Shown in pieces: positions 15,256 through 62,019 of a DNA stretch of 64,000 nucleotides (position 1 is the stretch's first letter; the number at the start of each line of letters is the position of its first letter). Under the pieces are notes generated by a model that worked only from the letters and a program-made list of their open reading frames with translations, was not told the DNA's origin and did no database searches. This DNA comes from Giardia intestinalis. Taxonomy: Eukaryota. A program made the position numbers and the translations under genes. Location of the stretch: the NCBI GenBank assembly GCA_000002435.2, contig CM018792.1; one strand, 5' to 3'.

Positions 15256-15543
15256 CCACTTATAGCTGGTAAATATGAAAACCAAATATGCTCTGAACAC
15301 GAAGACTTAAAATGTAACTCATATTTACCAATCACAGTATAGCCATCTTACTCATTACAAGTTCTCCAATATCTTAATTGTTATTGTGTGCTATTAAGGT
15401 AAGCAGCTGCTTCACTCATCGTTCGAGAGTATGCCATTTACCAACCAAAGGACTGCTTCTTTATGCCCGCAAAAGTGCACACTGGAGCCACAAGCGGCGG
15501 GAACAGTAACTATGGCTGATGCCCCCATGTGATAACTTTAAAA

Positions 15544-17673
15544 ATGCAGCTACCTAAGGTTTATCGGAAGTGCAAAACATGTCTAGTAGGAAATAGTCTG
15601 CTCCATTGCGTCGCCGAATCACTCACTGTACAAGGTCTGACTCCTGAAAAACTAATCTCACTAGCCAAGCGGCTAGTAAGCAAGTGCTCTGGGGTGGGTC
15701 ACGCTTTGATTTCATACTATAGCGTGACTATAAAAGGTGTTAGCACAATAGAGTTTATATCTCCATATGTAGGATGGTCCATAGAAGACTATCTCATGCT
15801 TACACTATATGAGGGAAGGACCATTCCAGAGGAACAAGTATATAGATTTATGGCCGCCATCATTTGGATACTTAACCAGCTCGTGCACATATGCAGAACC
15901 TCACTTCTTATGTGGATCTTTCTTGGATACGCCAATCTATCACTAAATAATTTCTGCCTAGATGAGTTTGGAGCAATACGTTTCCGCTTAGATCTAGGTC
16001 ACACGCTAAAGAACATGATACTGGTCGATGAACGACTTGCGGACTGGCCACGGATCAAAGGGAGTGAGTTAGGTGTTCATCTTAAACTGCATATAATACA
16101 GTGCATCTTACGTCTAGCGTTTCCCCTTAACAATTTAGAAATAAATGGAATTGATCCGTACTCGGGCGCATTTTCTCGAGTATTTAAAGACTCGGAACGA
16201 AGCAAGGTGTTTTGCAGTCGCATGGAGCGTTTAATTTATTTATTTCAAAAAGAAGACATAACGTTAAGTCATATATTACATACAAACTTATTCAAAACAG
16301 AATTAGAAAAGTACTGGCAATCCTTGGGCATAACAGCAGATGACGATGCATCAACGCCTCTCATCGACTCTGTGCGTGCAAACGATATACAAAAAATATA
16401 CAATTTTTATGGACGGCAGGCTGGAATGATGACTTCTTCTGGTAAAACTGCACTTATGATAGCAGCTTCCAGAGGAGACACACGCGTGACCACACTCTTA
16501 GCGACACGGGAAGCTAACTACAGAGACATTTATGGAAACTATGCAACTCTGCTGGCAATCAAGAATGGATACAAAAATGTGGCGTTGCACCTTGCAGCGT
16601 ATGAGTCCATGGTTCTTCAAGAGGATGGTATCACCCCGTTAATGCTTCACGTTATCGGCAAAAATCTACAAGTCCCATTTCAAGAACTGATACAGGATGC
16701 GGGGAAGCAAATGAAAAATGGATTTTCTGCTCTTATGATTGCTTCCTTGACTAATGATCTGGACTATTCAATGGTACTCGCAAAGAAAGAGGCAGGATTG
16801 TGTAACGCAGAAGGGAAGACAGCAGGAACACTAGCTAACGAGCAAGGAAATACACAAATTTCACAATTCTTGGCTCGTTATGAAATAGTAATGGGAGTTG
16901 ATGGAGAAACACAGCTTCATCAAGCAGTATTAGCGGGTGATCTGCGCGCAGTGGAAGCTTATGTACATGCTGCACGTTCATATAATAAGGCTGGCTATAC
17001 AGCGTTAGGATTAGCAGCAAAGTTCAATCATACTGATATCATAAAAACTCTGATTCCCCACGAAGCTGGGATGCGGTGTAAAGTTAGCTTCGAGGCATGC
17101 GGCAGGACGTTTCAGGATCCAACGGCTTTGGCCATAGCAGTCTATCATAATAACGAGCAGGCAGTGAATCTTTTAAAACGGTATGAGGCAGGATTGGGAA
17201 TGAAGCCCCTCCAAACTACTGCCATGATGCTTGCAGCAGCGTGCGGATATAGCGGACTTATATCTCTTCTGCGAACTCGAGAAGAAAAGATGCAAGACAC
17301 ACACGGCAACACCGCGCTGATGTACGCCGTGAATAGCTCTTCCCTAGACGCAGTTTATAAACTAATGAAATACGAATCTCGAATACAAAATACAGAAGGA
17401 TACACTGCACTTATGTATGCTGCCTTCCACAATAAGGTACAAATTGTTGCTGCTCTTATGAAACTGGAAGAGGGGATGATCAATGTGCAAGGCGAACCGG
17501 CTATTATCTGTGCTATCAAGGCAGAAGCTAAAGAGTGTATAAGTATACTTGTTCGAGGATCAGAGGTGTCGTATTCTAAACAGTGTATTGAAATGATTAA
17601 ATCCAGTGCTACACTGACTTGCGCTATGAAGAGAGTTATGTTGAGGTATTTTAAAGAGGAGAAATTTCATTGA
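15544..17673 (+). CDS. ankyrin-repeat protein ('protein 21.1'-like) with a possible degenerate kinase-like N-terminal region
   Basis: The track start at 15529 is GTG and follows an ATG-TGA. The real start is ATG 15544 in aactttaaaaATGcag. The C-terminal two thirds are tandem TALMxAAxxG...V..LL ankyrin repeats. The N-terminal 270 aa has alphaE/catalytic-loop-like spacing but no GxGxxG, HRD or DFG. Confidence 0.8.
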   Translation: MQLPKVYRKCKTCLVGNSLLHCVAESLTVQGLTPEKLISLAKRLVSKCSGVGHALISYYSVTIKGVSTIEFISPYVGWSIEDYLMLTLYEGRTIPEEQVYRFMAAIIWILNQLVHICRTSLLMWIFLGYANLSLNNFCLDEFGAIRFRLDLGHTLKNMILVDERLADWPRIKGSELGVHLKLHIIQCILRLAFPLNNLEINGIDPYSGAFSRVFKDSERSKVFCSRMERLIYLFQKEDITLSHILHTNLFKTELEKYWQSLGITADDDASTPLIDSVRANDIQKIYNFYGRQAGMMTSSGKTALMIAASRGDTRVTTLLATREANYRDIYGNYATLLAIKNGYKNVALHLAAYESMVLQEDGITPLMLHVIGKNLQVPFQELIQDAGKQMKNGFSALMIASLTNDLDYSMVLAKKEAGLCNAEGKTAGTLANEQGNTQISQFLARYEIVMGVDGETQLHQAVLAGDLRAVEAYVHAARSYNKAGYTALGLAAKFNHTDIIKTLIPHEAGMRCKVSFEACGRTFQDPTALAIAVYHNNEQAVNLLKRYEAGLGMKPLQTTAMMLAAACGYSGLISLLRTREEKMQDTHGNTALMYAVNSSSLDAVYKLMKYESRIQNTEGYTALMYAAFHNKVQIVAALMKLEEGMINVQGEPAIICAIKAEAKECISILVRGSEVSYSKQCIEMIKSSATLTCAMKRVMLRYFKEEKFH

Positions 17674-18611
17674 ATACCAAACCTTTGTGATAGTTTTCTT
17701 GCCCGTTCCATGTCCATGCTTAGTACAGTTGATAGTCCTTTCCAAATGACAGGGTCGAACTCATGTTGGTAAGCAGAATCTACTTGATCATCTGATTGCT
17801 GCGTATCCGAAAAACAAATTGTTGACCTAACATATAAAGACTCATATTCGTGCTTATTAAGGTCTATTTGTAGACCATGAATTGCGTAAAGTCGTTGCTG
17901 TTCTATCTTATCTGTGTATCTTCTTATCGTAATTAATCCTTCTGCATACAATTGCGCTATATCAAAGATAGCATGCACCGTTCGAGTAAAGTCTGTTGGG
18001 CTGAGAAATACGAAGGCCAGGGGGTAGAAGCCGCGGCGCGAGAGCTCCGTGACCCGCGCGAGGAGCCCCTGCTTCCGGCGCTCCTGGAGCTCGGCGCCGC
18101 ACATCGCGAGGGCCTCGTAGCGCCGCCGCTCGACGGCCTGCGCGCCGGAGGGCTCTGCCTCCCGGGGCCGCGGGGGAGCCCTGGGGGCTGCGGGCCCTGC
18201 GGTGCCGGCGGCGCACCCCGCGTACAGCGAGGCCGCGAGCTCGGGCGGGAAGCGGGCGGCGTACCCGGCCTGGAACGCGTCGGCGAGGAGGCGCAGGTCG
18301 ACGCGCGGCGGGTCTGCAGGGGCCCCGGCCCGGGGGAGGAGCCGCAGCTGGCCGCGGAGGAAGCCGGCGCCCTGGTCCTCGGCCGCCCGGGCCACCCGCG
18401 CCTCCAGGCTCCGGGCAGACAGGCGCACCGTGGCGGACAGCGCGGCCTCCGTCTGCAGCATCAGGCCGACGTCCCCCCGGGGCTGGGCGGCGTAGGACTC
18501 GTAGCCGTCCCGGAGCTCGGCCAGGAGCGCCGTGACCGCCGCGTGGTCCCGGGCCTGCGCGGCCGCCTGCACCCGGGCGGAGACGCTCGCGAGGCGCGCA
18601 CGGGGCTCCAT
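17667..18611 (-). CDS. island gene A: small Ala/Arg-rich protein. 203 aa are encoded inside the island, and in this copy the frame stays open for 111 more codons into flanking DNA
   Basis: The GC3-rich frame on the minus strand runs from ATG (18609-18611, MEPRARLAS...) down to the island edge at 18004. In copy 1 there is no stop until 17667-17669. In copy 2 the same frame stops 4 codons outside the island. Confidence 0.5.
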   Translation of the reverse strand: MEPRARLASVSARVQAAAQARDHAAVTALLAELRDGYESYAAQPRGDVGLMLQTEAALSATVRLSARSLEARVARAAEDQGAGFLRGQLRLLPRAGAPADPPRVDLRLLADAFQAGYAARFPPELAASLYAGCAAGTAGPAAPRAPPRPREAEPSGAQAVERRRYEALAMCGAELQERRKQGLLARVTELSRRGFYPLAFVFLSPTDFTRTVHAIFDIAQLYAEGLITIRRYTDKIEQQRLYAIHGLQIDLNKHEYESLYVRSTICFSDTQQSDDQVDSAYQHEFDPVIWKGLSTVLSMDMERARKLSQRFGIQ

Positions 18612-18621
18612 CGGACGGGGC

Positions 18622-18650
18622 GGAATTTTGCCGGCCGGCCAAAAATTCAC
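18622..18650. promoter_or_regulatory. palindromic AT-containing spacer between divergent island genes A and B (putative bidirectional initiator)
   Basis: ggaattttgccggccggccaaaaattcac is a near-perfect inverted repeat (aattttGCCGGCCGGCCaaaaatt). It is one of only about four AT-containing spots in the island and sits exactly between the two ATGs at 18611 (-) and 18654 (+). Confidence 0.4.
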
Positions 18651-18653
18651 TCG

Positions 18654-19793
18654 ATGGACTGCATCGGCCGCGGCGTCCTCCTCCCCCCGGGCGGGGCGTG
18701 CTCGTGCGGGGCGCTTCTGGCGGAGCTGCAGCGGGTCTGCCCCCTCCTCGCCGCCTCCCCGGGGGTCTGCGCCGCGCCCCGGGCCCTTGCGTGCTGCCAC
18801 CAGCCCCCGTGCCTCGAGATCGCGCCGGCGCCGGCCACCCCGCGCAGCGCCGTCCGGGTCCCTGGGTCCGCGTGCACGGCTCCACCGCCCGCCGCAGGGC
18901 CCCCGGAGGCCGCCCCGGCCGAGAGCGTCCAGGTGACCCTCAGCGCCCAGCGCGAGTCGTTCGTGATGCAGACGATGCGGCAGGCGCACTACGGCGGCGG
19001 AGAGGCCCCCGCGAGGGCGGAGAGCGCCCGCCTGCCCGCCCCGCAGGCCTCGGACCCGAGGGAGGCCCGGCGGAGCCACGCGTCCCGCCCGCGGACGGCC
19101 GGCCCCCGCCTCCCCGCCTGCCCCGAGGAGCCCCCCGGCAGGGTCCAGTTCCGGGGCGCCCCCGAGGCCCCGCCCCTGCGCTGCGAGCCGGCCCCGCCCT
19201 CCGAGTTCAGCGACTTCGGGTGCGAGCTGCTCGCGGCGGGCCAGCCCGAGGACCGGCGGGTCTGCGGCGCCCCGTGGGTGGACGCGCAGGACCTGCTGAG
19301 CGACGGCTCCGAGCACAGCGAGTTCTACCGCCTCGTCGAGAGGGAGCTCGCGCGGCTTCCGGAGCCCGCGGCCCCGGCCCTCCCGGAGAGCGAGCCCTCG
19401 CTGGACGCGCTGCCCGTGCACGCCTCGCCCCGGGGCCCGCAGATCATCGAGCCCACGCCGGCCGCCCTGCAGGAGCCAGAGGAGCCCGCGCCCCCGCAGC
19501 CCCCCACGCCGGGCCGCTCCGACAGCGTCTCGGCAGACATCACGGAGTCGCTCCTCGTGGAGGGCCGGCCCCTGCCCGACCGCCCCCCGGGCCCGGAGCC
19601 GTCCGAGGGCAGCGCCGGGTACAGCGGAGAGGCCTTCGACAGCTCCGGCTCGCCCCGGGGCCTGACCGACGAGGCCGCGGGGTCTGCGGGCCTGGACGAG
19701 GAGGACCTGCTGGGGTCCGTCGGCGGGGACCTGCGGGCGCTGCTCATGGACAGCGGGTCCGGGTCGCTGTCTGCGGGGGCCTGGCCGGAGTGA
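18654..19793 (+). CDS. island gene B: Pro/Ala/Glu/Ser-rich, acidic, probably disordered protein (379 aa)
   Basis: ATG at 18654 (MDCIGRG...). A GC3-rich frame runs to TGA 19791-19793. The stop overlaps a polyA-type signal gAGTGAACt. Confidence 0.6.
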   Translation: MDCIGRGVLLPPGGACSCGALLAELQRVCPLLAASPGVCAAPRALACCHQPPCLEIAPAPATPRSAVRVPGSACTAPPPAAGPPEAAPAESVQVTLSAQRESFVMQTMRQAHYGGGEAPARAESARLPAPQASDPREARRSHASRPRTAGPRLPACPEEPPGRVQFRGAPEAPPLRCEPAPPSEFSDFGCELLAAGQPEDRRVCGAPWVDAQDLLSDGSEHSEFYRLVERELARLPEPAAPALPESEPSLDALPVHASPRGPQIIEPTPAALQEPEEPAPPQPPTPGRSDSVSADITESLLVEGRPLPDRPPGPEPSEGSAGYSGEAFDSSGSPRGLTDEAAGSAGLDEEDLLGSVGGDLRALLMDSGSGSLSAGAWPE

Positions 19794-19816
19794 ACTCGGG
19801 AGAGCCTTTTTATTGA

Positions 19817-22327
19817 ATGGATTCTGCGCCACTCGCCGTCGCGATCCGGGAGCACGTCCCGGGCCCGAGGCCCCCGCCGCGGCCGTCCGGGGGGCGGTCC
19901 CTCTTCGCGCAGGCCGTGGCCGCCGGGGCCGGACAGACCGGGAGGCCCTTCGCCCTCGGGCAGCCCCCGCCGCGCGCCCCGGCCCCAGCGCCGCCCCGGG
20001 GCCCCCCACCGCCCCCCGCCGCAGAGGACCCGGGCGGGCCCCTCCTCGGGTACGGGGGCGCCGCAGACCCGGAGGCCGTCCCGTTCTGCAGCGCGGCGGA
20101 CATCGGGCTCCTCTGCCGGTCGACGAACCCCGCCCAGCGCGAGTACGGGCTCCGGATGCTCGCGAACGCCGTCGCGCTCCGGCGCGTCCGGGACGGCGGC
20201 GCCCCCGACCCCGTCCTCGAGGCCCTGCTCTGCCTCCCCGCCGACCCGCACGCGTGCCCCTCGTCTGCCGGCCACCTCCTCCTCCTGGGCCTGCGGGACG
20301 CCCTGGAGTCCGGGAGCCCCGGCCTCCTCGACGCCGCCCTCTCCGGCCTCGCCACGGTCTTCGTCGCCGACGAGGGCTTCCTCAGCGAGACCGTCCACGT
20401 CGGGGCCGCGCTGCTCGGGCTGACGTCCAGCTCGGTCGCCTTCCCCCTCGGCTCCCTGCTGCGGCGGCTCGTCGAGCACGGGCTCCCGGGGCTCCTGGGC
20501 CAGGCCCTCGACGCCGCCGCGCGCGCAGACGAGCGGCGCCGGGAGCGGCTCGCCCACAGCGCGTACCTGCTGGCCGAGCGCGTGCTCATCGGCTGCTGCC
20601 CCGCAGACGAGCCCCCGGAGACCGCCGCCGGCCTGCGGGCCCTCGCGGAGCGGCTCCTCGCGGCGCTCCTGGGCGAGCTCGCCGGGCTGGCGGAGACGGG
20701 GGCCTTCCTGACGACCGCCTCCCGCGTCGCCCTCCGGACGCTCTGCTACGACCACGTCCTCGACGGCCACGCGCTCGGCCGGGACGCCGTCGCCCTCCTC
20801 GTCGAGTCCCTCGAGGCGTTCGTCGGGGCGCTCCCCGGCCAGGACGAGGCGGTCCGCACAGAGCTCCTCTCGGCCGCCACGCTCCACTACCTCCTCGTCG
20901 CCCGGGTCCTGCGGGGGAGCCCCGAGCTCTGCGCCCTGCACGCGGCCGTCTCTGCGACGTGCGCCGCCGCCCTGGAGCGCCACGCCCCGGCCGCCCCCGC
21001 GGAGCTCAGCGCGCTCCTCGTCCTGCTCCGGATCCTCCGGGCCCGGGCCGCCGTCCCCCGCGCGCGCCTGGGGCTCTCGGAGGCATGCTTCCGGCGGCTG
21101 GTCGACTGGCGGGCCCCGCCCGAGGCCGGGGGCTTCGCGCTGCCCCAGGGGCCCTCCGCGGCGTTCGCCCCGTTCTACGCCCTCGCGGCCGTCCAGTGGC
21201 GCGGCCCGGGCGAGTGGGGCGCGGCGGAGGCCTGGGTCGGCTGCGTGATGGACGTCCTCGCCAGCGGGCCCCCGGTCGCGCGCTGGGCGCCCCCGGCCGT
21301 CGACGCCCACCGGCGGGCAGGCGTGCTCCCGTGCGCGGTGACCGACGCAGGGGTCGCCCTCGCGCTCCTCGTCGCGGCCCTGGCGGCCGTCTGGGGCCCC
21401 GGGCTCCCGTTTGCCGCCGGCCTCGCCGAGCGGGTCGGGGAGCGCCTGGCAGGGCTCCCGGCCGAGTTCCGGTTCGTCGTCGCGTTCCCGCTCGCCCGGC
21501 TCCTCCCCCCGCTGCCCGCTATCGAGTGCGGGCTCTACCCGAACGCGGCGCTCCTCGGGGCGCTCCGGGCCGTCACGGGCCACCCGGGCTACGACCCCGC
21601 GGCAGAGGCGCTTGCGCACGTCGACGCCCGCTGCCCGTGCCCCGCGCTCGCGGCCCTCCACGCGGCGTGCGTGCTCGCCTCGGACGGGATGCGGCGCGAC
21701 GGGGCGTGGCGGCTCGCGGTCCTCCGGCTCGCGCTGCAGCGCCTGGCCGGGCTGGAGACCGCAGGGGCCGCCCGGGGCCGCGTCCTCGCGTACGGGCTCC
21801 TCTGCGTCCTCGACACGCTGACGGGCGTCTGTCGCCTCCCCCCGGACGCCGCGGCCCTCCTCGCGGAGACGCTCGCCGGGGTCCTCCGCCTCGCCCGCGC
21901 AGGCCCCGCCCCCGCCGCCGAGCTCCTCTACGCAGCGCCCGCCGGGGGGCTCCGGACGCTCGACGCCGCCGCCGGCGCGTTTGTCGAGGGCCTCCACGGG
22001 GGCGCGGCGGTGCTCCCCGAGGCCCCGCTCGTCTACCTCGCGCTCCTCCACCCGCAGCTCGTCCCGGACCCCCGCCGCCGGGCAGAGCTCTGGTCCGGGC
22101 TCGCGCTCCTGCGGCTCGACTTCGCGGCGCTCGACGGGGGCCTCCTCGCGGGGCTCTGCGAAGACGACCCCGCGCCCGTCCTCGCGTGCCTCGCGTGCTA
22201 CGAGCGCCGCGCAGAGACCGCCCTGTCGCGCCGCGTCCTCGCCCGGTACGCAGAGGCCCACCGGGGGCAGAGGCCCGACCGGGTCGTCGTCGCGGCCGTC
22301 GAGGAGGCCCTCCGACCAGCGGGCTAG
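19817..22327 (+). CDS. island gene C: 836-aa Ala/Leu/Arg-rich protein, predicted alpha-helical repeat architecture, unknown function
   Basis: ATG at 19817 in ctttttattgaATGG. GC3 periodicity across the whole length and a single long frame. Confidence 0.7.
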   Translation: MDSAPLAVAIREHVPGPRPPPRPSGGRSLFAQAVAAGAGQTGRPFALGQPPPRAPAPAPPRGPPPPPAAEDPGGPLLGYGGAADPEAVPFCSAADIGLLCRSTNPAQREYGLRMLANAVALRRVRDGGAPDPVLEALLCLPADPHACPSSAGHLLLLGLRDALESGSPGLLDAALSGLATVFVADEGFLSETVHVGAALLGLTSSSVAFPLGSLLRRLVEHGLPGLLGQALDAAARADERRRERLAHSAYLLAERVLIGCCPADEPPETAAGLRALAERLLAALLGELAGLAETGAFLTTASRVALRTLCYDHVLDGHALGRDAVALLVESLEAFVGALPGQDEAVRTELLSAATLHYLLVARVLRGSPELCALHAAVSATCAAALERHAPAAPAELSALLVLLRILRARAAVPRARLGLSEACFRRLVDWRAPPEAGGFALPQGPSAAFAPFYALAAVQWRGPGEWGAAEAWVGCVMDVLASGPPVARWAPPAVDAHRRAGVLPCAVTDAGVALALLVAALAAVWGPGLPFAAGLAERVGERLAGLPAEFRFVVAFPLARLLPPLPAIECGLYPNAALLGALRAVTGHPGYDPAAEALAHVDARCPCPALAALHAACVLASDGMRRDGAWRLAVLRLALQRLAGLETAGAARGRVLAYGLLCVLDTLTGVCRLPPDAAALLAETLAGVLRLARAGPAPAAELLYAAPAGGLRTLDAAAGAFVEGLHGGAAVLPEAPLVYLALLHPQLVPDPRRRAELWSGLALLRLDFAALDGGLLAGLCEDDPAPVLACLACYERRAETALSRRVLARYAEAHRGQRPDRVVVAAVEEALRPAG

Positions 22328-22334
22328 CGTTCAC

Positions 22335-23264
22335 TCAATCAGGGGCACCTGACCCCAGGGCGGCCCGCAGGCCCGCGACCTCCCCCCGGAGCCGGGCGAC
22401 CTCGTCCTCCAGGGCCTTGAAGCGCAGGGCCGTCGCGACCGCAGGCGCCCCGCCCTCTGCGTCGAGGAGCTCCACGAGGGCCGCGGCGGTGAGGCGGCGC
22501 TCCGGCTCCAGGACGAGGAGGTGGGCGAGGACGCCCCGGACGACGGGGTCCCCGACCGCGCCCAGGTCCGGCCGCCAGCCCGCGACGTAGACCTCCGCGG
22601 GGGCCCGCCCGGAGAGGAACGGGGGCCTGCCGCCCGCCGCGAGCTCGTAGGCGACCATCCCGAGGCTCCACATGTCCGCGGCCGGCGTGTGGCTCCCGCC
22701 CCGCAGGACCTCCGGCGCGGCGTAGACGGGGACGGCCATGGAGGCGAGCCCCCCGGGGCCCTCCCTGCAGAGCCCGAAGTCGGAGATGGCGAACTCCGCC
22801 CCGGCCTCGTCGAGGAGGACGTTCGCGGGCCGCAGGTCGCAGTGCGTGAGGGCGGGGAGCGGGGCGCCCGCGGCGTCGGTCTTCCCGGGCCGGTGGAGGT
22901 AGGCGAGCCCCGCGCCCACCTGGCGGAGGACGGCGACGACCATCTCGCGCGGGGCGAGCTGCCTTCTGCGGCGGAGGCTCCGGATGGCCCCGTCGAGGGA
23001 GCCTGCGTAGCGCCGCATCTCGACGTAGATGTAGCCCTCGTGCCGGACGACGCGCCCGTACTCGACGACGTTCGGGTGGCGGAGGCGCGGGAGGGTCCGG
23101 AGCTCGAGCTCGAGCGAGGCCTGCGCGTCGGGGGGCAGCCCGTCGGTCGGGATCTCCTTGACCGCCCTGTCGGGGGCGCTCTTCAGGCCGTAGACGGTCC
23201 CGTGGGCCCCGCTCCCGAGCTCTGCGCCCAGGTCTTCGAGGAGGGCGTCGATGGCCTCGGACAT
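22335..23264 (-). CDS. island Ser/Thr protein kinase (309 aa) with atypical catalytic loop HCDLRPAN
   Basis: LGSGAHGTVY (Gly loop), RAVKEI (beta-3 Lys), HCDLRPANVLL (catalytic loop, R->C and K->R versus HRDLKPEN), SDFGL (DFG), YAAPEV (APE) and DMWSLGMVAYEL (subdomain IX). The ATG is preceded on the minus strand by ggattaaaaagATG. The stop TGA overlaps AGTGAAC. Confidence 0.85.
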   Translation of the reverse strand: MSEAIDALLEDLGAELGSGAHGTVYGLKSAPDRAVKEIPTDGLPPDAQASLELELRTLPRLRHPNVVEYGRVVRHEGYIYVEMRRYAGSLDGAIRSLRRRRQLAPREMVVAVLRQVGAGLAYLHRPGKTDAAGAPLPALTHCDLRPANVLLDEAGAEFAISDFGLCREGPGGLASMAVPVYAAPEVLRGGSHTPAADMWSLGMVAYELAAGGRPPFLSGRAPAEVYVAGWRPDLGAVGDPVVRGVLAHLLVLEPERRLTAAALVELLDAEGGAPAVATALRFKALEDEVARLRGEVAGLRAALGSGAPD

Positions 23265-23268
23265 CTTT

Positions 23269-23595
23269 TTAATCCGCGACTGGGCGATTGGGTGGGCTCA
23301 ATCGCTTGGGCTCAGATCGGGGCCTGTATAGATTCACCGAACAGATATGACAATTAGCGCACTTACTACCTAAGTTACGTCTTCCTGCAGCAGAAAAATC
23401 CAATGAGACCACCGCGCTCTTAGTAATATTAGAATTTGCGCATTTTGTCTTATCGTTATTAGAGTCAAAGATTTTTATCCTGGCACAATTATTGGATCTG
23501 TCCTTGTAGTTAGTAGTGGAAAATCCCACTCCACATGATGTTTGTGCCCATATAAACTGGATAATTAAGGCAACAAACACAAATCTGCCAAGCAT
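23269..23595 (-). CDS. questionable small ORF (108 aa) with N-terminal signal-peptide-like segment and 6 Cys; its last ~16 codons lie inside the island's right edge
   Basis: ATG at 23595 verified. MLGRFVFVALIIQFIWAQTS is hydrophobic. The frame continues across the island boundary at 23316 to a stop at 23269. Confidence 0.3.
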   Translation of the reverse strand: MLGRFVFVALIIQFIWAQTSCGVGFSTTNYKDRSNNCARIKIFDSNNDKTKCANSNITKSAVVSLDFSAAGRRNLGSKCANCHICSVNLYRPRSEPKRLSPPNRPVAD

Positions 23596-24034
23596 TAAGG
23601 GATAAGCTGCTGCACAAAGGCCTTAGCTTAAAAGGAATGAAGTTGCTCTCCGTAAATCTCTGACTGAGAGTCTCTCTACCGCGGTCGATCATATCGCTCA
23701 TTTTCGAAGGTCTGCTTTCCCTATAAATATGTTAATGATACCGTGAAAATTTAGTTTGTTGCAAAATTTGCTTTGAGAGATATGCTGGTCAGGTTCCTTA
23801 TTCCTTAATTAATCTGTAGCTCAATATCGTATGAATTGCGGGTTAGTAATAAAGCTGATCAAGTGGTAAAATGCATGCATAATCAAGGGAAGCTGTTACG
23901 ATAGAATCCTGAAAAAAGTGTTATTACACCGTAAGCACCCGATGAAACCAACCAAAGTAGAGAACAACTTGGCTATTTGCTAAATAAAATAGAGGGAGTT
24001 CTAAATACATTTAGGTCAGTAACGGATGGAGCTG

Positions 24035-24508
24035 CTACTCAGAAAAGGGTAGTGATCCCGGGCGCAAAGCTGACAACATAGCTAAAAGTAAAAACGAGGG
24101 AAACGTTATTGAAACTGTCGCCGCATACGTTATGATAATGAAGACGCCACCCCCACGTATCATGGCCATGTACTCCAGTCCGGCTATGTCGACCATGAAA
24201 ATCAAGCTTCCTGTGGAGACAACGCAAAAGGTGCTTCCATTATAAAGGTAGAACCTTTTCTGTGCTTCAGGACCCTGTTGAAAACATCGAAGCAGAGCAA
24301 GGATAGATTCTTCAGAGGTCTCCCTTGGTGGCTTGATGACTGATATTCTCACATTTGTTGCGTGGTCTGCATCTGGACCTTCACTCTTTACAAGCTGCTT
24401 AGAGGTGTAAACTGGAACCTCCGTCACTATACAGAGCGATGTGAGGAATATACAATGATCCAGAAAGCTCTGGACAAACTTATTATAAACATGACTGACA
24501 GATGCCAT
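24035..24508 (-). CDS. hypothetical small membrane protein (157 aa)
   Basis: ATG at 24508 verified. C-terminal hydrophobic segment VFIIITYAATVSITFPSFLLLAMLSAL. No motif. Confidence 0.45.
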   Translation of the reverse strand: MASVSHVYNKFVQSFLDHCIFLTSLCIVTEVPVYTSKQLVKSEGPDADHATNVRISVIKPPRETSEESILALLRCFQQGPEAQKRFYLYNGSTFCVVSTGSLIFMVDIAGLEYMAMIRGGGVFIIITYAATVSITFPSFLLLAMLSALRPGSLPFSE

Positions 24509-24547
24509 TTTTCATTAGCCAAAAACAACAACTAATTCACAGAACCA

Positions 24548-56287: not shown

Positions 56288-56911
56288 CTAAAGAGTAAGC
56301 TTAAGAAATACGAAGGCCAGGGGGTAGAAGCCGCGGCGCGAGAGCTCCGTGACCCGCGCGAGGAGCCCCTGCTTCCGGCGCTCCTGGAGCTCGGCGCCGC
56401 ACATCGCGAGGGCCTCGTAGCGCCGCCGCTCGACGGCCTGCGCGCCGGAGGGCTCTGCCTCCCGGGGCCGCGGGGGAGCCCTGGGGGCTGCGGGCCCTGC
56501 GGTGCCGGCGGCGCACCCCGCGTACAGCGAGGCCGCGAGCTCGGGCGGGAAGCGGGCGGCGTACCCGGCCTGGAACGCGTCGGCGAGGAGGCGCAGGTCG
56601 ACGCGCGGCGGGTCTGCAGGGGCCCCGGCCCGGGGGAGGAGCCGCAGCTGGCCGCGGAGGAAGCCGGCGCCCTGGTCCTCGGCCGCCCGGGCCACCCGCG
56701 CCTCCAGGCTCCGGGCAGACAGGCGCACCGTGGCGGACAGCGCGGCCTCCGTCTGCAGCATCAGGCCGACGTCCCCCCGGGGCTGGGCGGCGTAGGACTC
56801 GTAGCCGTCCCGGAGCTCGGCCAGGAGCGCCGTGACCGCCGCGTGGTCCCGGGCCTGCGCGGCCGCCTGCACCCGGGCGGAGACGCTCGCGAGGCGCGCA
56901 CGGGGCTCCAT
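56288..56911 (-). CDS. island gene A, copy 2 (207 aa; the stop lies 4 codons outside the island)
   Basis: ATG at 56909-56911. The protein is identical to the island-encoded part of copy 1 and ends ...FVFLKLTL. Confidence 0.55.
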   Translation of the reverse strand: MEPRARLASVSARVQAAAQARDHAAVTALLAELRDGYESYAAQPRGDVGLMLQTEAALSATVRLSARSLEARVARAAEDQGAGFLRGQLRLLPRAGAPADPPRVDLRLLADAFQAGYAARFPPELAASLYAGCAAGTAGPAAPRAPPRPREAEPSGAQAVERRRYEALAMCGAELQERRKQGLLARVTELSRRGFYPLAFVFLKLTL

Positions 56912-56921
56912 CGGACGGGGC

Positions 56922-56950
56922 GGAATTTTGCCGGCCGGCCAAAAATTCAC
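56922..56950. promoter_or_regulatory. palindromic spacer between divergent genes A and B, copy 2
   Basis: Same aattttgccggccggccaaaaatt element as in copy 1. Confidence 0.4.
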
Positions 56951-56953
56951 TCG

Positions 56954-58093
56954 ATGGACTGCATCGGCCGCGGCGTCCTCCTCCCCCCGGGCGGGGCGTG
57001 CTCGTGCGGGGCGCTTCTGGCGGAGCTGCAGCGGGTCTGCCCCCTCCTCGCCGCCTCCCCGGAGGTCTGCGCCGCGCCCCGGGCCCTTGTCTGCTGCCGC
57101 CAGCCCCCGTGCCTCGAGATCGCGCCGGCGCCGGCCACCCCGAGCAGCGCCGTCCGGGTCCCTGGGTCCGCGTGCACGGCTCCACCGCCCGCCGCAGGGC
57201 CCCCGGAGGCCGCCCCGGCCGAGAGCGTCCAGGTGACCCTCAGCGCCCAGCGCGAGTCGTTCGTGATGCAGACGATGCGGCAGGCGCACTACGGCGGCGG
57301 AGAGGCCCCCGCGAGGGCGGAGAGCGCCCGCCTGCCCGCCCCGCAGGCCTCGGACCCGAGGGAGGCCCGGCGGAGCCACGCGTCCCGCCCGCGGACGGCC
57401 GGCCCCCGCCTCCCCGCCTGCCCCGAGGAGCCCCCCGGCAGGGTCCAGTTCCGGGGCGCCCCCGAGGCCCCGCCCCTGCGCTGCGAGCCGGCCCCGCCCT
57501 CCGAGTTCAGCGACTTCGGGTGCGAGCTGCTCGCGGCGGGCCAGCCCGAGGACCGGCGGGTCTGCGGCGCCCCGTGGGTGGACGCGCAGGACCTGCTGAG
57601 CGACGGCTCCGAGCACAGCGAGTTCTACCGCCTCGTCGAGAGGGAGCTTGCGCGGCTTCCGGAGCCCGCGGCCCCGGCCCTCCCGGAGAGCGAGCCCTCG
57701 CTGGACGCGCTGCCCGTGCACGCCTCGCCCCGGGGCCCGCAGATCATCGAGCCCACGCCGGCCGCCCTGCAGGAGCCAGAGGAGCCCGCGCCCCCGCAGC
57801 CCCCCACGCCGGGCCGCTCCGACAGCGTCTCGGCAGACATCACGGAGTCGCTCCTCGTGGAGGGCCGGCCCCTGCCCGACCGCCCCCCGGGCCCGGAGCC
57901 GTCCGAGGGCAGCCCCGGGTACAGCGGAGAGGCCTTCGACAGCTCCGGCTCGCCCCGGGGCCTGACCGACGAGGCCGCGGGGTCTGCGGGCCTGGACGAG
58001 GAGGACCTGCTGGGGTCCGTCGGCGGGGACCTGCGGGCGCTGCTCATGGACAGCGGGTCCGGGTCGCTGTCTGCGGGGGCCTGGCCGGAGTGA
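56954..58093 (+). CDS. island gene B, copy 2 (379 aa, acidic, low complexity)
   Basis: ATG at 56954. Three amino-acid differences from copy 1 (G->E, A->V, H->R in the ASPGVCAAPRALACCH region) plus A->P near the C-terminus. The stop overlaps AGTGAAC. Confidence 0.6.
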   Translation: MDCIGRGVLLPPGGACSCGALLAELQRVCPLLAASPEVCAAPRALVCCRQPPCLEIAPAPATPSSAVRVPGSACTAPPPAAGPPEAAPAESVQVTLSAQRESFVMQTMRQAHYGGGEAPARAESARLPAPQASDPREARRSHASRPRTAGPRLPACPEEPPGRVQFRGAPEAPPLRCEPAPPSEFSDFGCELLAAGQPEDRRVCGAPWVDAQDLLSDGSEHSEFYRLVERELARLPEPAAPALPESEPSLDALPVHASPRGPQIIEPTPAALQEPEEPAPPQPPTPGRSDSVSADITESLLVEGRPLPDRPPGPEPSEGSPGYSGEAFDSSGSPRGLTDEAAGSAGLDEEDLLGSVGGDLRALLMDSGSGSLSAGAWPE

Positions 58094-58116
58094 ACTCGGG
58101 AGAGCCTTTTTATTGA

Positions 58117-60627
58117 ATGGATTCTGCGCCACTCGCCGTCGCGATCCGGGAGCACGTCCCGGGCCCGAGGCCCCCGCCGCGGCCGTCCGGGGGGCGGTCC
58201 CTCTTCGCGCAGGCCGTGGCCGCCGGGGCCGGGCAGACCGGAAGGCCCTTCGCCCTCGGGCAGCCCCCGCCGCGCGCCCCGGCCCCAGCGCCGCCCCGGG
58301 GCCCCCCACCGCCCCCCGCCGCAGAGGACCCGGGCGGGCCCCTCCTCGGGTACGGGGGCGCCGCAGACCCGGAGGCCGTCCCGTTCTGCAGCGCGGCGGA
58401 CATCGGGCTCCTCTGCCGGTCGACGAACCCCGCTCAGCGCGAGTACGGGCTCCGGATGCTCGCGAACGCCGTCGCGCTCCGGCGCGTCCGGGACGGCGGC
58501 GCCCCCGATCCCGTCCTCGAGGCCCTGCTCTGCCTCCCCGCCGACCCGCACGCGTGCCCCTCGTCTGCCGGCCACCTCCTCCTCCTGGGCCTGCGAGACG
58601 CCCTGGAGTCCGGGAGCCCCGGCCTCCTCGACGCCGCCCTCTCCGGCCTCGCCACGGTCTTCGTCGCCGACGAGGGCTTCCTCAGCGAGACCGTCCACGT
58701 CGGGGCCGCGCTGCTCGGGCTGACGTCCAGCTCGGTCGCCTTCCCCCTCGGCTCCCTGCTGCGGCGGCTCGTCGAGCACGGGCTCCCGGGGCTCCTGGGC
58801 CAGGCCCTCGACGCCGCCGCGCGCGCAGACGAGCGGCGCCGGGAGCGGCTCGCCCACAGCGCGTACCTGCTGGCCGAGCGCGTGCTCATCGGCTGCTGCC
58901 CCGCAGACGAGCCCCCGGAGACCGCCGCCGGCCTGCGGGCCCTCGCGGAGCGGCTCCTCGCGGCGCTCCTGGGCGAGCTCGCCGGGCTGGCGGAGACGGG
59001 GGCCTTCCTGACGACCGCCTCCCGCGTCGCCCTCCGGACGCTCTGCTACGACCACGTCCTCGACGGCCACGCGCTCGGCCGGGACGCCGTCGCCCTCCTC
59101 GTCGAGTCCCTCGAGGCGTTCGTCGGGGCGCTCCCCGGCCAGGACGAGGCGGTCCGCACAGAGCTCCTCTCGGCCGCCACGCTCCACTACCTCCTCGTCG
59201 CCCGGGTCCTGCGGGGGAGCCCCGAGCTCTGCGCCCTGCACGCGGCCGTCTCTGCGACGTGCGCCGCCGCCCTGGAGCGCCACGCCCCGGCCGCCCCCGC
59301 GGAGCTCAGCGCGCTCCTCGTCCTGCTCCGGATCCTCCGGGCCCGGGCCGCCGTCCCCCGCGCGCGCCTGGGGCTCTCGGAGGCATGCTTCCGGCGGCTG
59401 GTCGACTGGCGGGCCCCGCCCGAGGCCGGGGGCTTCGCGCTGCCTCGGGGGCCCTCCGCGGCGTTCGCCCCGTTCTACGCCCTCGCGGCCGTCCAGTGGC
59501 GCGGCCCGGGCGAGTGGGGCGCGGCGGAGGCCTGGGTCGGCTGCGTGATGGACGTCCTCGCCAGCGGGCCCCCGGTCGCGCGCTGGGCGCCCCCGGCCGT
59601 CGACGCCCACCGGCGGGCAGGCGTGCTCCCGTGCGCGGTGACCGACGCAGGGGTCGCCCTCGCGCTCCTCGTCGCGGCCCTGGCGGCCGTCTGGGGCCCC
59701 GGGCTCCCGTTTGCCGCCGGCCTCGCCGAGCGGGTCGGGGAGCGCCTGGCAGGGCTCCCGGCCGAGTTCCGGTTCGTCGTCGCGTTCCCGCTCGCCCGGC
59801 TCCTCCCCCCGCTGCCCGCTATCGAGTGCGGGCTCTACCCGAACGCGGCGCTCCTCGGGGCGCTCCGGGCCGTCACGGGCCACCCGGGCTACGACCCCGC
59901 GGCAGAGGCGCTTGCGCACGTCGACGCCCGCTGCCCGTGCCCCGCGCTCGCGGCCCTCCACGCGGCGTGCGTGCTCGCCTCGGACGGGATGCGGCGCGAC
60001 GGGGCGTGGCGGCTCGCGGTCCTCCGGCTCGCGCTGCAGCGCCTGGCCGGGCTGGAGACCGCAGGGGCCGCCCGGGGCCGCGTCCTCGCGTACGGGCTCC
60101 TCTGCGTCCTCGACACGCTGACGGGCGTCTGTCGCCTCCCCCCGGACGCCGCGGCCCTCCTCGCGGAGACGCTCGCCGGGGTCCTCCGCCTCGCCCGCGC
60201 AGGCCCCGCCCCCGCCGCCGAGCTCCTCTACGCAGCGCCCGCCGGGGGGCTCCGGACGCTCGACGCCGCCGCCGGCGCGTTTGTCGAGGGCCTCCACGGG
60301 GGCGCGGCGGTGCTCCCCGAGGCCCCGCTCGTCTACCTCGCGCTCCTCCACCCGCAGCTCGTCCCGGACCCCCGCCGCCGGGCAGAGCTCTGGTCCGGGC
60401 TCGCGCTCCTGCGGCTCGACTTCGCGGCGCTCGACGGGGGCCTCCTCGCGGGGCTCTGCGAAGACGACCCCGCGCCCGTCCTCGCGTGCCTCGCGTGCTA
60501 CGAGCGCCGCGCAGAGACCGCCCTGTCGCGCCGCGTCCTCGCCCGGTACGCAGAGGCCCACCGGGGGCAGAGGCCCGACCGGGTCGTCGTCGCGGCCGTC
60601 GAGGAGGCCCTCCGACCAGCGGGCTAG
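58117..60627 (+). CDS. island gene C, copy 2 (836 aa, Ala/Leu-rich)
   Basis: Same frame and length as copy 1. One difference noticed: Q->R in ALPQGPS. Confidence 0.7.
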   Translation: MDSAPLAVAIREHVPGPRPPPRPSGGRSLFAQAVAAGAGQTGRPFALGQPPPRAPAPAPPRGPPPPPAAEDPGGPLLGYGGAADPEAVPFCSAADIGLLCRSTNPAQREYGLRMLANAVALRRVRDGGAPDPVLEALLCLPADPHACPSSAGHLLLLGLRDALESGSPGLLDAALSGLATVFVADEGFLSETVHVGAALLGLTSSSVAFPLGSLLRRLVEHGLPGLLGQALDAAARADERRRERLAHSAYLLAERVLIGCCPADEPPETAAGLRALAERLLAALLGELAGLAETGAFLTTASRVALRTLCYDHVLDGHALGRDAVALLVESLEAFVGALPGQDEAVRTELLSAATLHYLLVARVLRGSPELCALHAAVSATCAAALERHAPAAPAELSALLVLLRILRARAAVPRARLGLSEACFRRLVDWRAPPEAGGFALPRGPSAAFAPFYALAAVQWRGPGEWGAAEAWVGCVMDVLASGPPVARWAPPAVDAHRRAGVLPCAVTDAGVALALLVAALAAVWGPGLPFAAGLAERVGERLAGLPAEFRFVVAFPLARLLPPLPAIECGLYPNAALLGALRAVTGHPGYDPAAEALAHVDARCPCPALAALHAACVLASDGMRRDGAWRLAVLRLALQRLAGLETAGAARGRVLAYGLLCVLDTLTGVCRLPPDAAALLAETLAGVLRLARAGPAPAAELLYAAPAGGLRTLDAAAGAFVEGLHGGAAVLPEAPLVYLALLHPQLVPDPRRRAELWSGLALLRLDFAALDGGLLAGLCEDDPAPVLACLACYERRAETALSRRVLARYAEAHRGQRPDRVVVAAVEEALRPAG

Positions 60628-60634
60628 CGTTCAC

Positions 60635-61564
60635 TCAATCAGGGGCACCTGACCCCAGGGCGGCCCGCAGGCCCGCGACCTCCCCCCGGAGCCGGGCGAC
60701 CTCGTCCTCCAGGGCCTTGAAGCGCAGGGCCGTCGCGACCGCAGGCGCCCCGCCCTCTGCGTCGAGGAGCTCCACGAGGGCCGCGGCGGTGAGGCGGCGC
60801 TCCGGCTCCAGGACGAGGAGGTGGGCGAGGACGCCCCGGACGACGGGGTCCCCGACCGCGCCCAGGTCCGGCCGCCAGCCCGCGACGTAGACCTCCGCGG
60901 GGGCCCGCCCGGAGAGGAACGGGGGCCTGCCGCCCGCCGCGAGCTCGTAGGCGACCATCCCGAGGCTCCACATGTCCGCGGCCGGCGTGTGGCTCCCGCC
61001 CCGCAGGACCTCCGGCGCGGCGTAGACGGGGACGGCCATGGAGGCGAGCCCCCCGGGGCCCTCCCTGCAGAGCCCGAAGTCGGAGATGGCGAACTCCGCC
61101 CCGGCCTCGTCGAGGAGGACGTTCGCGGGCCGCAGGTCGCAGTGCGTGAGGGCGGGGAGCGGGGCGCCCGCGGCGTCGGTCTTCCCGGGCCGGTGGAGGT
61201 AGGCGAGCCCCGCGCCCACCTGGCGGAGGACGGCGACGACCATCTCGCGCAGGGCGAGCTGCCTTCTGCGGCGGAGGCTCCGGATGGCCCCGTCGAGGGA
61301 GCCTGCGTAGCGCCGCATCTCGACGTAGATGTAGCCCTCGTGCCGGACGACGCGCCCGTACTCGACGACGTTCGGGTGGCGGAGGCGCGGGAGGGTCCGG
61401 AGCTCGAGCTCGAGCGAGGCCTGCGCGTCGGGGGGCAGCCCGTCGGTCGGGATCTCCTTGACCGCCCTGTCGGGGGCGCTCTTCAGGCCGTAGACGGTCC
61501 CGTGGGCCCCGCTCCCGAGCTCTGCGCCCAGGTCTTCGAGGAGGGCGTCGATGGCCTCGGACAT
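60635..61564 (-). CDS. island Ser/Thr kinase, copy 2
   Basis: Same motifs as copy 1. One substitution noticed: P->L in RRRRQLAPREM. The track ORF extends 15 codons upstream only because the 8-bp insertion changes the upstream frame. The ATG at 61562-61564 retains the aaaaagATG context. Confidence 0.85.
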   Translation of the reverse strand: MSEAIDALLEDLGAELGSGAHGTVYGLKSAPDRAVKEIPTDGLPPDAQASLELELRTLPRLRHPNVVEYGRVVRHEGYIYVEMRRYAGSLDGAIRSLRRRRQLALREMVVAVLRQVGAGLAYLHRPGKTDAAGAPLPALTHCDLRPANVLLDEAGAEFAISDFGLCREGPGGLASMAVPVYAAPEVLRGGSHTPAADMWSLGMVAYELAAGGRPPFLSGRAPAEVYVAGWRPDLGAVGDPVVRGVLAHLLVLEPERRLTAAALVELLDAEGGAPAVATALRFKALEDEVARLRGEVAGLRAALGSGAPD

Positions 61565-62019
61565 CTTTTTAATCCGCGACTGGGCGATTGGGTGATTGGG
61601 CGGGCTCAATCGCTTGGGCTCAGACTGAGATACCGCCTAGCTGAGCGCCGCTCAATGAGGGTGATCGGGCGGAATTGAACGAAAAGGAAAGGACCCGACC
61701 ATCGTTCCAGAGATGGCTTGACCGAGTTCGCCTGTCGACTAGGATCAGATCAGGCAGCTAGTACTGGACTACTCACTATCAATATGTATTCTATCACTGG
61801 AGTTATGGAACAGCTAAGTGAAGTCTATATTCTTAAGATGAATCTTAATTGTCAATAATTGATGTTTACAAATCTGGAGTCTCTGCATCTTAGGTCAATC
61901 CTAAATAGGTAAATATGAGCATGTCCAGATAAAGTTTACTGTCAACCCACATAGTAAGATAAGTTAAAGCAGATTACGACCTCCGAGGTTGAAAGAGGGA
62001 ATGCTTGTTGATGACCTCA

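Follow-up and report, generated by a model that had tools for sequence, protein, structure and literature searches.

A known Nek-like kinase of Giardia intestinalis carries a conserved, family-typical HCDLRPAN catalytic loop

The window analyzed here, a stretch of 64,000 nucleotides from contig CM018792.1 of Giardia intestinalis (assembly GCA_000002435.2), contains two copies of a GC-rich repeat with a kinase gene in each (Table 1). Copy 1 is the ancestral locus, since it holds gene A at full length and is syntenic with P15 on its left flank; at the left edge of copy 2, gene A is truncated. Gene A straddles the repeat edge, with its 5' 606 nt inside (GC3 0.95) and its 3' 339 nt outside (GC3 0.29). 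Gene C is convergent with the kinase, leaving 7 nt between the two stop codons, and only five homologous proteins were found for it (69-99% identity), whose contigs align with the Giardia sequence of the window. Its AF2 model was all-helical and of low confidence (pLDDT 47.7, from a 5-sequence alignment), too poor for a fold search. Gene B had no Pfam match and gene C neither a Pfam nor an NCBIfam match; the kinase is the only gene of the repeat segment matching either database, which agrees with the original prediction that it is the sole recognizable enzyme. An rDNA unit was rejected as the identity of the 5.3-kb, 79% GC island because no Rfam match at gathering thresholds was present in the whole window.

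Table 1. Repeat copies, neighboring genes and kinase features, in positions of the window
Feature	Position	Strand	Details
Repeat copy 1	18004..23316	.	5313 bp, 78.5% GC
Repeat copy 2	56304..61624	.	5321 bp; identity with copy 1 of 99.57% (15 mismatches, one 8-bp tandem indel)
Gene A	17667..18611	-	314 aa; orthologues DHA2_152216, GLP15_3080
Gene B	18654..19793	+	379 aa, Pro/Ala/Ser-rich, Giardia-specific; GC phase, orthologous ORF at same position in L011
Gene C	19817..22327	+	836 aa, Giardia-specific; GC phase
Kinase CDS copy 1	22335..23264	-	309 aa, ATG start; ORF, Pfam, exact sequence match to NCBI/UniProt
Kinase CDS copy 2	60635..61564	-	P105L; XP_037902011.1 / A0A644F5Z8
52 nt 5' of ATG	23265..23316	-	Inside repeat; A/T-rich ATTAAAAAG abuts ATG
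Gly-rich loop GSGAHG, G17-S-G19-A-H-G22	23199..23216	-	Translation; invariant in orthologue alignments
β3 lysine K36 (AVKE)	23157..23159	-	Alignment
Codon 105	22950..22952	-	CCG (Pro) in copy 1, CTG (Leu) in copy 2; sole coding difference between window copies
Catalytic loop H141-C-D143-L-R145-P-A-N148	22821..22844	-	CAC TGC GAC CTG CGG CCC GCG AAC
D162-F-G-L-C166	22767..22781	-	DFG, DFG+1 Leu, DFG+2 Cys; Cys invariant in orthologues
APE, A183-P-E185	22710..22718	-	P+1 loop before it reads AVPVYA instead of the common GTPxYx
Stop codon TGA overlapping AGTGAAC	22329..22337	-	End of homology with GWT1-adjacent paralogue

The gene is not new and has a curated annotation. Its copy 1 protein matches exactly XP_001706129.1 / A8BMM4 / GL50803_101307 ('Kinase, NEK') in NCBI and UniProt, and its sequence is identical to entry GK086 (Nek-GL1) in Manning's Table S1. 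The published kinome lists GL50803_101307 as Nek-GL1, 3:1:1, 'Active (K,D,D present)', with SAGE expression in the cluster trophozoites/encyzoites (Manning et al., 2011); in the Giardia kinome papers the label 'Active' means that K, D and D are present, and nothing more. The reading frame is genuinely coding (GC1/GC2/GC3 0.81/0.52/0.965), unlike many spurious GC-rich ORFs. The A/T-rich ATTAAAAAG before the ATG is presumably a Giardia-type initiator, and we take AGTGAAC at the stop codon to match the Giardia polyadenylation signal AGTRAAY. A single nucleotide (22951 G vs 61251 A) separates the two coding sequences in the window and produces P105L in RRRRQLA(P/L)REM, bearing out the one amino-acid change that had been predicted between conserved copies. 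The implied total of two copies, however, did not stand: WB has three near-identical copies, the third of which lies outside the window, encodes 308 aa, ends in GAP before the stop and adjoins GWT1. A further WB copy (copy 2/third copy) has been reported as a transcribed 'gene repeat' (PMC3792122). The dN/dS between copies, proposed as a check, cannot inform on constraint since the copies differ by only 0-1 non-synonymous and 0-2 synonymous changes.

Profile search with the 309-aa ORF assigned it to Pfam Pkinase (PF00069) at 111.9 bits (cutoff 31.7; E=4.4e-32), so the domain passes the kinase HMM check on which the prediction had been staked; PK_Tyr_Ser-Thr (PF07714) scored lower, at 72.2 bits, and NCBIfam gave sub-threshold matches to bacterial kinase equivalogs only. 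A structure model, also suggested beforehand, confidently predicted a bilobal kinase fold (AF2 pLDDT 92, pTM 0.89), a result at fold level that says nothing on catalysis. Foldseek with this model matched many kinase structures (E ~1e-16, TM 0.65-0.8), and the model superposes on active Ser/Thr kinases. In addition to the motifs in Table 1, the translation contains αC E54, subdomain IX D197-M-W-S-L-G and subdomain XI R257. Each of K36, D143, D162, G17/G19/G22, E54, N148, APE 183-185, D197 and R257 is found in the protein and unchanged across the orthologues.

The kinase departs from the canonical HRDLKxxN, which is replaced by H-C-D-L-R-P-A-N, although the two residues replaced, the HRD Arg and the loop Lys, typify kinases without defining them: non-RD kinases and Arg-type loops are known. 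Arg145 is a real departure because at least 90% of the 92 kinases in an alignment have Lys there. At residue 142, just before the catalytic Asp, the A, E and B-type orthologues have Cys and the most divergent orthologue has Gly, which makes the protein a non-RD kinase. The original description of HCD for HRD and Arg for the loop Lys, with the Gly loop, β3 Lys, DFG, APE and subdomain IX otherwise complete, was thus confirmed, the former at codon level and the latter in the translation and the orthologues. All three of K, D and D, whose loss conventionally defines a pseudokinase, are kept, functional inactivity being a separate matter. Tyrosine-kinase signatures are absent: the loop reads R-P-A-N and the P+1 loop AVPVYAAPE, with no HRDLAARN or HRDLRAAN and no P-x-x-W-x-APE.

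Compared with Nek-GL4 GL50803_101534, the kinase showed 44% identity (209 bits, E=7e-71), whereas the best non-Giardia match reached 65 bits. An exhaustive HMMER search recovered 85 relatives at E<=1e-30, scoring 120-264 bits, many of them with TALM-ankyrin repeats. Identity to GK086 and the closeness of the paralogues place the protein in the Giardia-specific Nek-like expansion (Nek-GL1/GL4; 'ncPKDD'), and judged by its sequence it is a native Giardia-specific Nek-like kinase, of Manning subfamily Nek-GL1 and 'non-core' with a KDD triad in the 2025 nomenclature. Its closest known systems are the Nek-GL1/GL4 kinases, with GL50803_86934 as paralogue; with GL50803_101534 it shares the C-lobe signatures GWRPDL and VLEPERR as well as DFGLC, and several Nek-GL4 members carry an identical HCDLRPAN. 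Unlike these relatives, it has only a C-terminal helix and no ankyrin repeats, and it is set apart by a GC3 of 96.5%, an Arg/Ala-rich composition and three concertedly evolving copies.

The suggested classification against NEK and other families gave membership of the Giardia Nek-like family, while placement in NEK in the strict sense is ambiguous: human NEK2 (PDB 2jav, 2w5a; E=2.8e-17) is the best solved-structure sequence match, at 66.3 bits, with CaMK1 practically level at 66.1 bits. Foldseek against the PDB returned ASK1, CaMKII, CDK2 and Aurora first, that is, generic Ser/Thr kinases without family discrimination. NEK2 resembles the kinase in an insert before the catalytic loop (HRRSDGGHTVLHRDLKPANVFL vs HRPGKTDAAGAPLPALTHCDLRPANVLL), in the PAN of the loop and in DxWSLG, but NEK2 has HRD, Lys and GTPYYMSPE, and the kinase has none of these. 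The 'Nek' label of GL50803_101307 rests on the curation of Manning et al. (2011) and is questioned by a 2025 re-annotation, in which most Giardia 'Neks' are treated as ambiguous Nek/PknB/Ciliate-A5 'non-core' kinases (PMC12538575).

The unusual loop is conserved. Every orthologue, even at 65% identity, keeps R145, D143 and N148, with R145 always encoded by CGG or CGA; residue 142 varies between Cys and Gly, the most divergent orthologue reading HGD. No catalytic residue varies among the orthologues of assemblage A, E and B type or in the 65%-identity lineage. Identity is 89% to the P15 orthologue and 75% to the GS-type, close to the 88% and 78%, respectively, published as averages for conserved Neks. 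Between lineages dN/dS was 0.43-0.73, moderately below 1, a ratio that is inflated because a GC3 of ~96% depresses dS and is unreliable as a measure of constraint. The K:R ratio of 4:29 reflects extreme GC pressure and shows that many replacements of Lys by Arg in this gene are driven by composition, a point against the active reading below.

The Arg-type loop is as frequent as the Lys type in the Nek alignment published for Giardia (DLRP 55 vs DLKP 55), with HCDL in 24 sequences and HCDLRPAN in at least 18; the Arg type is rare in other kinomes, and Trichomonas and Leishmania together have 10 DLRP vs 261 DLKP. Among 73 family representatives, 11 had Arg at the loop Lys position and 31 were non-RD. 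The K/D/D triad was kept in 6 of 11 Arg members and 36 of 52 Lys members (Fisher p=0.48), which leaves the Arg loop unsupported as a marker of degeneration. These comparisons of sequences indicate that HCDLRPAN is an old inherited variant that other Giardia Nek-like kinases also have, and not a recent lesion. The finding is real but largely ordinary, because the gene is catalogued and the loop is a common, conserved variant of the family. For the kinase itself, a catalogued member of the expansion, little changes; the conservation and family-typicality of the HCD plus K-to-R loop, together with its lack of a link to triad loss, are a useful addition. Since about half of the published Giardia Nek loops read DLRP, the activity of an Arg-loop member would bear on 'active' and 'inactive' calls across a sizeable part of a kinome that is under consideration for drug targeting.

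As to function, we lean with modest confidence toward GL50803_101307 being a catalytically competent non-RD Ser/Thr kinase and a native Nek-GL1 member, because HCD occurs in DYRKs and PKD, which are active. These enzymes keep the catalytic-loop Lys (HCDLKPEN) and belong to other groups (CMGC, CAMK) without specific sequence relationship to the kinase. Like it they have Cys for the HRD Arg and yet are catalytically active, HCD being carried by all DYRKs (PMC3677093) and by PKD (PMC10359097). From the motifs we infer that the kinase is active, that it is Ser/Thr-specific and that R145 has a part in catalysis: K36 and E54 would position ATP, D143 would serve as catalytic base, N148 and D162 would bind Mg, and R145 would contact the γ-phosphate in place of the usual catalytic-loop Lys. 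With Cys in place of the HRD Arg, activity would be expected not to require the usual clamp of that Arg on an activation-loop phosphate. The coiled-coil-like C-terminal helix (residues 272-306) probably serves oligomerization or targeting. The P+1 loop AVPVYAAPE counts against activity, since it lacks the usual Gly-Thr and with it the Thr that normally supports the catalytic Asp and Lys. A literature search found no assay of GL50803_101307 or of any Arg-loop Giardia Nek, and the five epitope-tagged Neks that we checked in Manning's Table S1 (5375, 8445, 92498, 101534, 16279) are all of the Lys type. With its small size, lack of extra domains and full set of motifs, the kinase would be the simplest Arg-loop member to test.

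The chief rival, which we judge rather unlikely though far from negligible, is a pseudokinase or scaffold that keeps the fold and maybe nucleotide binding, with useful phosphotransfer abolished by the K-to-R change, HCD and the lost P+1 Gly-Thr; conservation would then reflect a structural or binding role. Titin kinase, with its Arg-containing catalytic loop, is reportedly argued to be a pseudokinase and speaks for this reading, as do the atypical P+1 loop, the dN/dS of the gene, inflated as it is by compressed dS, and the lack of an Arg-loop Nek assay in the literature. The loss of DFG or another triad residue in 5 of the 11 Arg-loop representatives points the same way, but association of Arg with triad loss was not significant in the Fisher test above. 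The published kinome regards about 70% of Giardia Neks as inactive; pseudokinases among the Giardia Nek-like kinases, however, usually lose such residues as K36, E54, D143, N148, D162, the Gly loop and APE, all of which are invariant here over deep divergence. Moreover, kinases with HCD or with Arg at D+2 are active elsewhere (PMC10359097, PMC3677093, PMC5199340).

Altered chemistry or regulation, either tyrosine or dual specificity through the Arg-type loop or a Cys142-Cys166 redox switch as proposed for DYRKs, is improbable. According to the published kinome, Giardia stains strongly for pTyr although it lacks TK and TKL kinases, and Arg at D+2, in place of the Ser/Thr-type Lys, is a tyrosine-kinase signature that the kinase shares with Src-type enzymes (HRDLRAAN; PMC5199340). 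Tyrosine kinases, though, have Ala-Ala after this Arg and a P-x-x-W P+1 loop, whereas the kinase retains the Ser/Thr-type Pro (R-P-A-N, not R-A-A-N) and a Ser/Thr-type xPxYxAPE without Pro-x-x-Trp; the higher Pkinase than PK_Tyr_Ser-Thr score and the Ser/Thr kinases as closest structures also argue against tyrosine specificity. For the redox switch, DYRKs have an activation-loop Cys ~4 Å from the HCD Cys and redox regulation has been suggested (PMC3677093), and Cys166 is invariant in the orthologues and found in 49 of 73 family representatives. It also occurs in Lys/HRD members, however, and the Cys pair is not universal because the most divergent orthologue has HGD. Slimmer still is the prospect that the HxDLRPxN Arg-type non-RD loop marks a functionally distinct class within the Giardia Nek-like expansion, possibly of tyrosine/dual-specificity or Cys142/Cys166 redox-gated kinases. 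Were Arg-loop kinases of tyrosine or dual specificity, they would help explain abundant phosphotyrosine in Giardia without TK or TKL kinases.

Arrival of the kinase and its odd loop by horizontal transfer, on a GC-rich cassette from a high-GC bacterium or virus, is effectively refuted: the 79% GC of the island stands out against 46% for the genome and the top non-Giardia matches in a word-indexed search were actinobacterial and myxobacterial STKs (one with HRDVRPAN), but these are explained by shared Ala/Arg/Gly-rich composition and the word prefilter, and the 85 relatives resembling Giardia Neks score three to four times as high in the exhaustive HMMER search (120-264 vs ~65-70 bits), the orthologues lie beside GWT1 in conserved synteny in four lineages, and the gene bears the presumed Giardia-type initiator and poly(A) signal. 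Genes A and C each have five relatives, including the named Giardia proteins DHA2_152216 and GLP15_3080, and no transposase or integrase was found among the Pfam matches. The original framing as an 'island' or 'cassette', in the sense of foreign or mobile DNA, was therefore not sustained; the segment holding the kinase is native, and its four genes are specific to Giardia, lie in a segmental duplication of ancient date and have orthologues and conserved synteny in other assemblages. The high-GC tract (~79% vs 46% for the genome) ends to the nucleotide at the repeat boundary, within native gene A, and because it stops exactly there, GC-biased gene conversion is probably behind it. This genomic context may be more interesting than the catalytic loop, as the tract offers a clean case from nature of GC enrichment tied to a repeat, in an organism that is putatively asexual and tetraploid.

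With a GC content of 79%, the kinase region contains long ORFs in each of its six frames, and an ORF is by itself weak evidence of coding here. The 309-codon ORF was accepted as the coding frame because of its GC by codon position (0.81/0.52/0.965) and the match of its product to Pfam Pkinase (E = 4.4e-32, 111.9 bits, cutoff 31.7), a hit that the original prediction had expected. Every motif listed in that prediction was found in the translation, which has GSGAHG (G17-G22), AVK36E, αC E54, D162-F-G, A183-P-E, D197-MWSLG and R257, and the two copies indeed differed by one amino acid (P105L).

Coordinates of the island features and the adjacent gene
Feature	Position	Strand	Remarks
Neighbouring gene	15529-17673	+	714-aa ankyrin-repeat protein
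Gene A, copy 1	17667-18611	-	codon-phase GC; orthologues DHA2_152216, GLP15_3080
Gene B	18654-19793	+	codon-phase GC; 379 aa, Pro/Ala/Ser-rich
Gene C	19817-22327	+	codon-phase GC; 836 aa, predicted all-helical
Kinase, copy 1	22335-23264	-	309-codon ORF, ATG start
Catalytic loop	22821-22844		H141-C-D-L-R145-P-A-N148
8-bp tandem duplication, GATTGGGC/T	23293 / 61594-61601		only indel between island copies; ~30 nt upstream of kinase ATG, copy 2
Gene A, copy 2	56288-56911	-	cut at repeat edge: 207 aa, ending FVFLKLTL and stop
Kinase, copy 2	60635-61564	-	one base differs: 22951 G vs 61251 A (P105L)

The original prediction implied that the loop or its gene was peculiar to an island, but HCDLRPAN proved to be a variant typical of the Giardia Nek-like family. 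The column of R145 (D+2) is Lys in at least 90% of an alignment of 92 kinases. In the Giardia Nek alignment of Manning, where all counts are approximate lower bounds, DLRP and DLKP each occurred at least 55 times, HCDL at least 24, HRDL at least 77, HRDLRP at least 17 and HCDLRPAN at least 18, the last including several Nek-GL4 members; the Trichomonas and Leishmania kinome table gave 10 DLRP, 261 DLKP, 3 HCDL, 348 HRDL and 0 HRDLRP. In a set of 73 family representatives scoring 120 bits or more and clustered at 50% identity, D+2 was Lys in 52, Arg in 11 and another residue in 10, and the HRD-Arg position was Arg in 42, Gly in 15, Gln in 6 and Cys in 4; all four with Cys also had Arg at D+2. 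Only 2 of 76 more distant matches had Arg there. Judged from these counts, the loop is unusual outside Giardia and not within it.

A word-indexed search returned only orthologues (89%, 74% and 65% identity) followed by bacterial STKs at ~65-70 bits. This picture was misleading: when 1.84 billion representatives were searched exhaustively with HMMER, 85 relatives reached E≤1e-30. The best of these shared 35-43% identity, and many carried the TALM-ankyrin arrays typical of Giardia Neks. BLASTP aligned the kinase to the Nek-GL4 member GL50803_101534 over 257 aa (44% identity, E = 7e-71), with GWRPDL and VLEPERR in common. The kinase is less securely placed in the NEK family proper than in the Giardia Nek group: NEK2, which has a matching insert ahead of the catalytic loop, was the top solved-structure match but tied with CaMK1, and Foldseek on a confident AF2 model (pLDDT 92, pTM 0.89) retrieved ASK1, CaMKII, CDK2 and Aurora. 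A 2025 re-annotation found 'non-core' Giardia kinases equally ambiguous, between Nek, PknB and Ciliate-A5 (PMC12538575).

Across WB, P15 (assemblage E), two B-type copies and one lineage at 65% identity, the orthologues were invariant at R145 (CGG or CGA), D143, N148, K36, E54, DFG, APE, D197 and R257; at residue 142 the A, E and B orthologues have Cys and the most divergent one has Gly. The kinase is 89% identical to that of P15 and 75% to the B type, in line with the published means for conserved Neks, 88% and 78%. Nei-Gojobori dN/dS was 0.43-0.73, a range that should not be read as weak constraint since a GC3 of ~96% compresses synonymous divergence. The K:R ratio was 4:29 in WB versus 19:16 in a 59%-GC orthologue; GC pressure has thus reshaped the composition and left the catalytic residues untouched.

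The original prediction of a non-RD kinase of uncertain activity was partly right. We consider it fairly probable that the protein is catalytically active, as a non-RD Ser/Thr kinase whose R145 would stand in for the catalytic-loop Lys, because no part of the catalytic machinery is missing, its residues are conserved, and both substitutions have precedents: HCD occurs in active kinases, namely every DYRK (PMC3677093) and PKD (PMC10359097), and the Src-type signature HRDLRAAN has Arg at D+2 (PMC5199340). Arg at D+2 showed no association with loss of the K/D/D triad among the 73 representatives (intact in 6/11 Arg versus 36/52 Lys, Fisher p = 0.48). The DYRK Cys pair resembles Cys142 with the invariant Cys166 at DFG+2 (PMC3677093), but Cys166 is a family-wide feature, present in 49 of the 73 representatives, and HRD members have it too. 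Counting against activity, all five Giardia Neks checked (5375, 8445, 92498, 101534 and 16279) have Lys at D+2, and the Gly-Thr that is usual in the P+1 loop is missing; a pseudokinase or scaffold is the main rival, which we hold to be doubtful. Tyrosine specificity is unlikely, as the loop retains Pro-Ala, the P+1 loop is of Ser/Thr type and PF07714 scored below PF00069.

The gene, its triplication, predicted activity and classification are already known from database entries, the 2011 kinome table and a transcript study. Copy 1 matches XP_001706129.1 / UniProt A8BMM4 ('Kinase, NEK', Giardia intestinalis WB) exactly, copy 2 is XP_037902011.1 and a third WB paralogue is XP_001706668.1 (308 aa). 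The sequence is GL50803_101307 (GK086) in the curated kinome (Manning et al., 2011, Table S1; PMC3218828), where it shares with GL50803_86934 a SAGE profile peaking in trophozoites and encyzoites, and a TSS-seq/RNA-seq study describes the third copy as a transcribed 'gene repeat' (PMC3792122). The loop variant is visible in the 2011 supplementary alignment, and neither kinome paper draws attention to it in its text: 'HRD' is absent from both main texts (PMC3218828, PMC12538575), and 'catalytic loop' from that of 2025.

More noteworthy than the loop is a by-product, the repeat-bounded GC tract. The repeat (18004-23316 and 56304-61624) is 99.57% identical, with 15 mismatches, one 8-bp tandem indel and sharp edges, and codon-phase GC resolved four genes, namely A, B, C and the kinase. 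As predicted, the kinase is the only recognisable enzyme, genes A, B and C having no significant domain match in searches including Pfam and NCBIfam. The gene C product was modelled by AF2 at pLDDT 47.7. Relatives of genes A and C were few (52-99% identity), and both appear confined to Giardia; gene B has an orthologous ORF in contig L011, and B and C are conserved, apparently Giardia-restricted and extremely GC-rich. The A-B-C block has 77-79% GC in every lineage sampled. Residues 201-245 of gene A gave a weak, sub-threshold match to Nse4_C, the Smc5/6 kleisin C-terminal domain (E = 0.005, 17.4 bits, cutoff 26), which straddles the GC-rich/AT-rich junction of the gene and may be spurious. The N-terminus of the adjacent 714-aa ankyrin protein resembles a degenerate Nek or '21.1'-type kinase domain, and its syntenic counterpart in P15 (L015) is an ankyrin protein of 709 aa.

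Copy 1 is the ancestral locus, since gene A is full-length there and the left flank is syntenic with P15. Precisely at the repeat boundary, 18004, the GC3 of gene A falls from 0.95 to 0.29, and P15 shows the same step (L015, around nt 780). The enrichment in GC thus seems to go with the repeat, through biased gene conversion, and not with what the gene does. Kinase paralogues inside one genome are near-identical (2 synonymous differences in WB; dS 0.04 in the B type), whereas A and B copies have diverged (dS 0.25, dN 0.15), and the pattern indicates that the duplication is old and that gene conversion has homogenised its copies. The tract is most economically explained by GC-biased conversion, and Giardia genes in conversion tracts are GC-enriched (PMC12669663). 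A foreign origin was effectively excluded. The truncated product of gene A copy 2 turns up in identical form elsewhere in assemblage A (P0301), and a B-like lineage has one truncated in a different way (P0303), so the duplication is either old or recurrent.

The 8-bp duplication in copy 2 opens a TTG-initiated ORF of 324 aa, explaining the N-terminally extended database models P0001 and P0124. In all three WB loci the shared kinase unit begins ~52 nt ahead of the ATG and ends with the AGTGAAC signal that overlaps the stop. It adjoins GWT1 in four lineages; in a second junction type, also found in E-like and B-like contigs, gene C is convergent with the kinase. A VSP-like cysteine-rich gene, absent from the WB window, lies in P15 (L001, 418-2705) between the kinase and a flank syntenic with WB copy 2; it is apparently split in two frames and ends CRGRA. 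The order there is copy-2-type flank, VSP gene, kinase, GWT1. Compared with window positions 22329-25026 and 60629-63211, short-read Logan contigs from two assemblage-A samples (L004, L005) join the copy-1 or copy-2 upstream flank and kinase directly to GWT1 instead of gene C. These arrangements are either assembly chimeras over the 1-kb repeat or the products of real recombination between the kinase copies.
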